A DNA stretch of 36,346 bases from a virus (IMGVR_UViG_2529292882_000022:1-36346), one strand, 5' to 3'. Shown: positions 29,860-30,405, numbered from the stretch's first letter. Numbers and translations are program-made. The notes: generated from the sequence alone by a model not told the origin.

Positions 29860-29950
29860 AATGGACAACCTCAAAAAGAATCTTTTATACTTTCCCACGA
29901 GGATTTTCTCCGTACTCACTACTCACAATTTCCTCTTTGACGTGAAAACT

Positions 29951-29985
29951 AAAAACCCCGGACTGTTCCAGCAGCCGGGGTTTTT
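29951..29985. terminator. bidirectional rho-independent terminator hairpin (CCCCGG...CCGGGG flanked by A5 and T5)
   Basis: aaaaaCCCCGGactgttccagcagCCGGGGttttt; lies just downstream of the truncated minus-strand ORF ending at 30077. Confidence 0.6.
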
Positions 29986-30076
29986 GCTATCTGATGCTTG
30001 ATGCTGTACCCCTTACTTTCACTCATCGTAACCCCAGAAAAGAGCCTGCGTGAGTTGAGGGTGTTCAGCACTTCAG

Positions 30077-30221
30077 CGTCAGTTTTTAAACTGCTACGCG
30101 CTCTTTCATCCAGCCGTAGACAAACGACTCGTTGGCCTCGCGTTTTTCTGCCAGCTCCAGATAGCGGTCGCCCTGCGTGCAATTCAGCGCCTTCAGCATC
30201 ACCAGTTCGCCGTCTTTGCCA
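30077..30221 (-). pseudogene. 3' remnant of an ORF truncated by the Mu-like insertion
   Basis: Minus-strand open frame (...GDRYLELAEKREANESFVYGWMKERVAV, stop at 30077-30079) runs without a start up to the Mu-like terminal TG at 30222 and is followed by a terminator; reading frame assignment is tentative. Confidence 0.4.
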
Positions 30222-30405
30222 CTGTATTGATTCACTTGAAGTACGAAAAAAAACCGGGAGGACATTGGATTATTCGGGATCTGATGGGATTAGATTTGGT
30301 GGGGCTTGCAAGCCTGTAGCGCAAATTTTAGTCGTTAATCAATGAAACGCGAAAGATAGTAAAAAATTGCTTTTGTTTCATTGAAAATACGAAAAACAAA
30401 AACAC
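30222..30405 (+). repeat. Mu attL: transposase-binding repeats L1, L2, L3
   Basis: Repeated CGAAA-containing motifs at ~30235-30250 (tgaagtacgaaaaaaaac), ~30339-30358 (aatgaaacgcgaaagatag) and ~30379-30400 (ttgaaaatacgaaaaacaaaaac), at spacings matching Mu L1/L2/L3. Confidence 0.8.

Follow-up and report, generated by a model that had tools for sequence, protein, structure and literature searches.

Evidence for a Mu-family phage insertion in the endolysin gene of a Rac-family prophage in Escherichia coli B799

Introduction

Mu-like prophages are recognized by two hallmarks, a 5-bp duplication of the target and near-random integration (PMC12482185, PMC6379469). The window analyzed here is a 36,346-nt stretch of DNA that ends, on its right, in an element that agrees with the phages Mu and D108 in its terminal sequence, its L1 and L3 sites and the order of its genes (c-ner-A-B-kil-...-gam). 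Outside an immunity region at 30682-31660 these two phages are 95-98% identical to the window element, and the A run of their left end counts 7 A as compared to 8 A in the window. The nearest sequenced phage is PhiR68_1 (PV340575.1), which is 97.5-98.4% identical over the 6.1 kb of the element, repressor and ner included, and has no match to the window at about 34984-35226 (the gp7 region). The PhiR68_1 record carries the 5-bp duplication TTCAA on both sides and a right end reading ...GTGCGCCGCTTCA. PhiR68_1 was sequenced as an E. coli C phage; the copy in the window is a prophage in a different target.

The DNA to the left of this element has its closest phage record in Rac-SA53 (KU052037.1), with 95.7% identity over 85% of 5300-30200. 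The Rac-SA53 match ends at about 27098 (query 21799), leaving the stretch from the small-terminase gene through ParB to a fragment of an endolysin gene unmatched. The chromosomal prophages of the E. coli strains SC418 and A41 carry this endolysin gene intact, whereas in E. coli B799, the source of the window, it is split.

The closest characterized relative of the intact endolysin is Sen1395 (PDB 6V3Z), to which it aligns over residues 2-180 (E 1e-106). With Sen1395 and the typhoid-toxin secretion muramidase TtsA it has a two-domain plan in common, in which the N-terminal half is catalytic and the C-terminal half binds the substrate. In Sen1395 the catalytic half comprises residues 1-92, and the C-terminal half (93-180) of the Sen1395/TtsA muramidases contains the determinants of substrate recognition, which include the groove residues 165 and 167 of Sen1395 (PMC6996933). 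Unlike these muramidases, the intact allele sits in a prophage cassette of holin, holin and endolysin and is a conventional phage endolysin. The B799 allele is cut at residue 138 and lacks the part of the binding domain that holds the equivalents of Sen1395 Glu165 and Asp167.

Results

The window corresponds to the last 36,346 bases, less 2 nt, of scaffold JH768576.1 (254,156 bp), which belongs to the draft assembly of E. coli B799 (GCA_000261385.1). It is made up of two parts. Positions 1..30222 hold the late region of a resident Rac-family prophage on the minus strand, running from the tail fibers through baseplate, tail, head, portal, terminase, ParB/TAGT and small ORFs to the 3' end of the endolysin gene, as identified by identity to the SC418 prophage and Rac-SA53 and by Pfam. 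Positions 30223..36346 hold the left 6.1 kb of a Mu-family (Muvirus) prophage on the plus strand (L end, repressor c, ner, A, B, kil, gp6-gp9 and the 5' part of gam), as identified by identity to PhiR68_1, Mu and D108. The window ends 2 nt before the scaffold does, so that what truncates the Mu element in gam is the end of the scaffold and not a biological event. The draft assembly breaks inside this Mu-type prophage (gam, 36346), which continues on one or more further scaffolds; the break in gam would be accounted for if B799 had a second Mu-type copy.

The junction of the two parts was located to the base. In a three-way alignment of the window with the SC418 and A41 prophages, homology to the resident prophage ended exactly at 30222 and the canonical Mu left end, TGTATTGATTCAC..., started at 30223. 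The Mu-type terminus at 30223 reads TGTATTGATTCACTTGAAGTACG, and the longer string found there is TGTATTGATTCACTTGAAGTACGAAAAAAA. The window equals SC418 up to ...CTTTGCCAC (30222); beyond this base the window is Mu, whereas SC418 and A41 both read GTTTTTGCAG... and run on from the 30222 position into an intact 546-nt minus-strand gene. The left flank (28400-30222) is 99.9% identical to the SC418 chromosomal prophage over its full length and 96.8% identical to the A41 prophage. Across the last 323 nt of it (29900-30222) the SC418 prophage is identical at every base and the A41 prophage differs at 30221 only. Megablast against 5,426 complete E. coli genomes returned no record spanning the junction, and an exact-pattern search with the left junction had no match in viral_contigs, a collection of which B799 is evidently not part.

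The right-hand 6.1 kb was assigned from several kinds of evidence. When 30223-32500 was compared to phage records using megablast, PhiR68_1 matched with 100% coverage and 97.5% identity and Mu with 96% identity over 57% of the query. Over its first 459 nt the element shares 95% identity with Mu and 97.5% with PhiR68_1. The MuA-binding site L1 was detected at 30229..30248 (+), with one mismatch to GTTTCAYTNNAARYRCGAAA and in the position that it has in Mu and D108. Site L3 was detected at 30375..30394 (+) as an exact match to the consensus, and its counterpart in D108 is the annotated site at 156-172. These two were the sole matches to the MuA consensus in the 36-kb window, and the same scan found no weak L2 site at 3 or fewer mismatches.

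The element carries the early region of a Mu-type phage, with a repressor that diverges from ner, A and B behind a 5'-TG end and its L sites. The repressor (171 aa, 30562..31077, minus strand) matched HTH_Tnp_Mu_1 with an E of 4.9e-23. On the plus strand follow ner (72 aa, 31278..31496; gene call and HTH_35, E 2.4e-25), the MuA transposase (666 aa, 31499..33499; HTH_Tnp_Mu_1, HTH_Tnp_Mu_2, DDE_2 with an E of 2e-136, and Mu-transpos_C) and the MuB ATPase (312 aa, 33538..34476; AAA_22 and Phage-MuB_C). The terminal sequence, the megablast identity, the Mu domains in Pfam and the MuA sites together identify this part of the window as the left arm of a Mu-family prophage. The sequence-only reading had placed a Mu-like terminus directly to the right of an orphan frame, and the left end at 30223, the Mu-specific domains and the MuA sites are in full agreement with this.

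The repressor is 95.9% identical to that of PhiR68_1, 46.6% identical to Mu c and 39.1% identical to D108 c. The element differs from both Mu and D108 over the whole immunity region (30682-31660), which spans the repressor, the operators, ner and ~55 codons at the start of A and is found in common with PhiR68_1 only. This match to PhiR68_1 alone makes the element a Muvirus of a third immunity type, one already in GenBank, and adds B799 as a natural lysogen with this third, PhiR68_1-type immunity. An insertion of Mu or Mud made in the laboratory was considered and rejected because the immunity region differs from that of Mu.

The resident prophage was compared to its relatives in the same way. 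Between 9902 and 30222 (20.3 kb) the window is 99.06% identical to the uninterrupted prophage of E. coli SC418, which lies between ompN/uspF and recE/kilR/ydaSTUV, that is, at the Rac locus. The first base of the window falls about 650 bp to the inside of where uspF lies in SC418. Judged by SC418, the B799 prophage may occupy the Rac locus as well, and its recE, kilR and ydaS/T/U/V-type early genes would then lie beyond Mu on the other scaffold. Pfam matches in the resident region included Baseplate_J, SLT, Phage_portal_3 and phage_tail_N, and PHROGs agreed on the terminase. The terminase small subunit (26159-27250) and large subunit (24841-26169), both on the minus strand, form a pair that was recognized by Terminase_2, phrog_51, phrog_2 and the SC418 annotation. 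Further towards the junction, at 28366..29157 on the minus strand, lies a YnaK-like ParB_N-domain protein of 263 aa (phrog_620). This Rac-family prophage has nothing in common with the Mu module, and the description of the left side as a second, unrelated phage was thus correct. The small genes and packaging module that had been read off the sequence next to the truncated frame were also recovered, as small ORFs and ParB_N, TAGT, terminase and portal genes, all on the minus strand.

Several features of the resident region stood out apart from the junction. Within 27441-29157 (minus strand) the ParB_N protein overlaps a 310-aa protein with the Pfam domain TAGT (TET-Associated Glycosyltransferase), which also matches phrog_842 (beta-glucosyl-HMC-alpha-glucosyltransferase). 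Located directly upstream of the terminase, this pair may point to a role in DNA modification in this Rac-family phage. The gene at 23386-24822 (minus strand) matches Phage_portal_3 in Pfam, and the RefSeq name of its SC418 orthologue is "anti-CBASS protein Acb1 family protein"; with the gene in the portal position beside the terminase, this name looks misleading. The tail-fiber end (about 1430-5580) is mosaic in comparison to SC418, with a fiber of 1047 aa (phage_tail_N and Phage_fiber_2) as against 654 aa in SC418. A plus-strand insert of three ORFs (93, 182 and 165 aa) lies at 8236-9900 within the minus-strand tail module, and at this site SC418 carries a hypothetical gene and a partial AntA/AntB antirepressor gene.

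The gene interrupted at the junction was identified from its intact allele. This allele encodes 181 aa (WP_000836754.1), is annotated as glycoside hydrolase family 108 in both SC418 and A41, and was present as an exact sequence on 744 contigs in a look-up among ~15 billion proteins. Pfam assigned Glyco_hydro_108 to residues 8-91 (E 1.7e-26) and PG_binding_3 to residues 95-179 (E 1.2e-25), and PHROGs matched it to the endolysin family phrog_315. In SC418 and A41 the gene order is holin, holin, GH108 endolysin, terminator, small ORFs, ParB and terminase, with both holin genes directly upstream of the endolysin. The truncated ORF therefore belongs to the lysis cassette of the prophage, and the tentative placement of the disrupted gene in a lysis region, made from position only, was right.

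The break falls within codon Arg137 (C|GT), in the middle of the PG_binding_3 domain. What is left in the window is an orphan 3' fragment at 30086..30222 on the minus strand that equals the 3' end of the SC418 gene. It consists of 2 nt of Arg137 and the 44 codons Gly138-Val181 of the 181 (30220-30089), followed by TAA at 30088-30086. The frame has no start of its own, as the sequence-only reading had recognized. It continues uninterrupted into the Mu end over 15 codons, as far as an ATG at 30265, upstream of which no Shine-Dalgarno sequence was seen on reading the sequence. The earlier coordinates, from 30221 down to a stop at 30077, hold in so far as a truncated minus-strand frame exists, but were about 10 nt off; the frame that truly starts at 30221 is a different one, open to 29949. 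The 15 Mu L-end codons and the 44 endolysin codons together form a chimeric 59-aa ORF (30086..30265, minus strand), which an exact look-up identified as EIG41384.1 (ESTG_04974). Among ~15 billion proteins this exact sequence occurs only in E. coli B799, as a one-member cluster, and the ORF is most likely a by-product of annotation.

With 44 codons only, and with other frames open as well (frame 2, 30221 to 29949), the truncated frame might have been fortuitous, or the end of an ordinary chromosomal gene unrelated to the adjoining phage genes. However, SC418 and A41 both have an annotated endolysin gene, contiguous there with these same ParB and terminase genes, whose 3' end is 100% identical to the fragment, and by itself the fragment matches positions 33-76 of the 76 in the PG_binding_3 profile with 45.5 bits. 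These results refute a fortuitous or unrelated frame, the probability of which we consider close to nil.

The interruption of a single endolysin gene by Mu makes a definite statement about the other half of that gene. The last five bases before the Mu end, GCCAC (30218..30222), are the target pentamer and would form the left copy of the 5-bp duplication; in the uninterrupted allele, TCTTTGCCACGTTTTTGCAG, the pentamer is present in single copy. The target consensus of Mu is N-Y-S-R-N, which GCCAC fits. Before any look-up, a duplication of GCCAC was taken to predict an N-terminal product of residues 1-138, the coding sequence of which would end in ...CAA AAA CGT GGC and then TGA, the complement of the Mu right-end ...TCA. 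The predicted protein exists, as the only other piece of this gene in the collection. It is EIG43271.1 (ESTG_03895), was found among ~15 billion proteins in a single genome, E. coli B799, and lies on another B799 scaffold of 996,185 bp. The 59-aa chimeric ORF and the 138-aa protein thus come from the same single genome. When the duplicated Gly138 was removed from EIG43271.1 and the window's 44 codons were added, the result was WP_000836754.1 with 0 differences. Joining the flanks had been expected to restore an intact ORF, and at the protein level it did, as the two pieces make up the full 181-aa WP_000836754.1.

The right junction was modeled by joining the PhiR68_1 right end, GCCAC and the SC418 sequence, and the model translated to the exact 138-aa protein. 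The B799 product ends in ...KRG, which needs GTGGC before the stop, and a second copy of GCCAC at the right junction was deduced from this. Taken together, the protein product and the PhiR68_1 right-end sequence point to a 5-bp duplication that would lie adjacent to the Mu right end. The predicted right junction reads ...CTGCAAAAACGTGGC|TGAAGCGGCGCACGAAAAGCGCGAAAGCGTTTC..., with GCCAC placed directly against the Mu right end. Past the end of ESTG_03895 one would expect to read GCCAC and then, in reverse complement, a Mu right end (...TGAAGCGGCGCACG). A search with the predicted right junction, allowing a free spacer of 0-10 nt, gave no match in viral_contigs or genome_contigs, and B799 is evidently in neither collection. 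Truncation at a contig end was rejected as the origin of the 138-aa product, the end of which coincides with the stop predicted from the duplication and the Mu right end.

The two halves of the gene also bear on whether the junction is genuine. An assembly or scaffolding chimera would have misjoined Mu-type reads from elsewhere, and the endolysin gene would be intact in B799. Repeated phage DNA often breaks or misjoins assemblies, B799 is a draft, its scaffold stops in Mu gam 6.1 kb past the junction and a different scaffold holds the remaining half of the gene. Against this, the break lies, to the base, at the terminal TG of Mu and the window has no runs of N (0 in total). The product on the second scaffold overlaps the first by exactly one codon, as expected from a 5-bp duplication, and stops where the Mu right end would give TGA. 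A misassembly would not yield two precise and complementary junctions, and we regard a chimera as extremely improbable.

A different concern is that the two halves are separated by more than one prophage. Replicative transposition of Mu generates adjacent deletions, inversions and replicon fusions, and a Mu-mediated rearrangement of this kind between two Mu copies is an established outcome that could place the halves far apart. The junctions are indeed found on two separate scaffolds, of 254 kb and 996 kb, and a break inside Mu is expected if B799 has more than one Mu-type copy. A rearrangement between two independent insertions would, however, leave unmatched flanking pentamers, whereas here the same GCCAC would be found on both sides, the right copy being deduced from the protein. 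The fragments are also exactly complementary, with nothing lost. In addition, the L end faces the 3' part of the gene and the R end, as reconstructed, the 5' part, as a single insertion requires. We consider a rearrangement very unlikely. The junction that is exact to the base and the complementary fragment in B799 instead argue for the insertion of a Mu-like phage into a resident prophage with truncation of a gene, as first read from the sequence.

The DNA downstream of the endolysin gene contains an intrinsic terminator at 29951..29985 that was identified by folding, by a terminator scan and by conservation. It consists of A5, the hairpin CCCCGG(A)CTG...CAGCCGGGG and T5, and is identical in SC418 and A41. 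On the minus strand it folds with a dG of -24.7 kcal/mol (z = -5.1), and 0 of 200 shuffled sequences folded as well; in the plus-strand context the values were -30.4 kcal/mol and a z of -4.3. These values and the scan bear out the strong terminator noted here earlier. The flanking A and T tracts predict that it acts in both directions.

Two short ORFs lie beyond the terminator on the minus strand. The first encodes a hydrophobic protein of 37 aa (29746..29859; WP_001305859.1), is annotated in SC418 and A41, matches phrog_4493 (E 7e-16) and has a GAGG 9 nt before its ATG. The second encodes 60 aa (29562..29744) with a lipobox-like LVGC after a hydrophobic stretch, matches phrog_7528 (function unknown) over its full length (E 5.5e-37) and has no annotation in the RefSeq relatives. 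Lambdoid phages often carry spanins at a matching location. In Pfam and PHROGs neither the 37-aa nor the 60-aa ORF had a likeness to known spanin families, and the 57-, 60- and 86-aa ORFs near the terminator had no Pfam match.

A sigma-70-like promoter (TGGACA-18-TATACT, 29862-29891, plus strand) points into the bidirectional terminator. From these elements a plus-strand RNA of about 90 nt (29898-29990) is predicted that would be antisense to the 5' leader of the 37-aa ORF. A scan of the whole window at the Rfam gathering thresholds gave no families. The sar antisense RNA of P22 (RF00262) scored 23.3 bits at 29885-29988 (plus strand), below its gathering threshold of 43 and thus outside the family; this sub-threshold match consists mainly of the terminator hairpin, and its 5' hairpin requires a 36-nt insertion. 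The predicted RNA and the 37-aa ORF could be a pair of antisense RNA and small membrane peptide, or nothing.

Discussion

We are highly confident that the endolysin gene of the Rac-family prophage in B799 was the target of MuA/MuB transposition by a Mu-family phage with PhiR68_1-type immunity. From established Mu biology, a transpososome on the L and R end sites would have carried out strand transfer at GCCAC with a 5-bp stagger. Gap repair would then have duplicated GCCAC, so that Gly138 would be encoded on both sides of the element, and the terminal ...TCA of the right end would supply an immediate TGA stop for the N-terminal piece. Both fragments have 0 substitutions in comparison to the common allele, suggesting that the event was recent.

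The expected effect on the gene follows from its domain structure. The B799 endolysin would keep the catalytic domain (residues 8-91) and lose half of the substrate-binding domain, and with residues 139-181 lost its product is probably impaired. The catalytic domain is complete in the 138-aa fragment, which might still be partly active. The orphan 44 codons are presumably non-functional debris. No terminator-like site was found by the scan on the minus strand between the repressor stop (30562) and the Mu end; repressor transcripts may therefore read into the orphan fragment and stop at 29951-29985.

The insertion would also be felt beyond the endolysin gene. In relatives that lack the interruption, one strand carries all of the holin, endolysin, ParB, terminase and structural genes. 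In B799, about 37 kb of antisense Mu would lie between the holin/endolysin start of the late operon and the ParB, terminase, head and tail genes. Together with the split endolysin, this would probably leave the resident phage unable to lyse the cell or to express its late genes normally.

The insertion might be more than neutral debris. With the endolysin split and 37 kb of antisense Mu between the late promoter/holins and the genes for packaging and morphogenesis, the Mu-type phage would have "grounded" an otherwise intact, inducible Rac-family phage, and the two phages would be in competition, with consequences for the fitness of Mu or the host, but this appears rather unlikely. In a variant of this idea, the 138-aa catalytic fragment and the two holins may persist as a lysis-only cassette. 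The event itself is standard Mu transposition into a non-essential gene, of a kind already known and a textbook outcome of near-random Mu integration. It raises no new biological question unless the inactivation of the resident phage proved to be selected. For B799, the insertion of Mu accounts for two "hypothetical proteins", ESTG_04974 and ESTG_03895, each of which derives from one half of a single endolysin gene, and links two scaffolds of the draft assembly. Prophage predictors would fuse the two unrelated phages of this window into one call.
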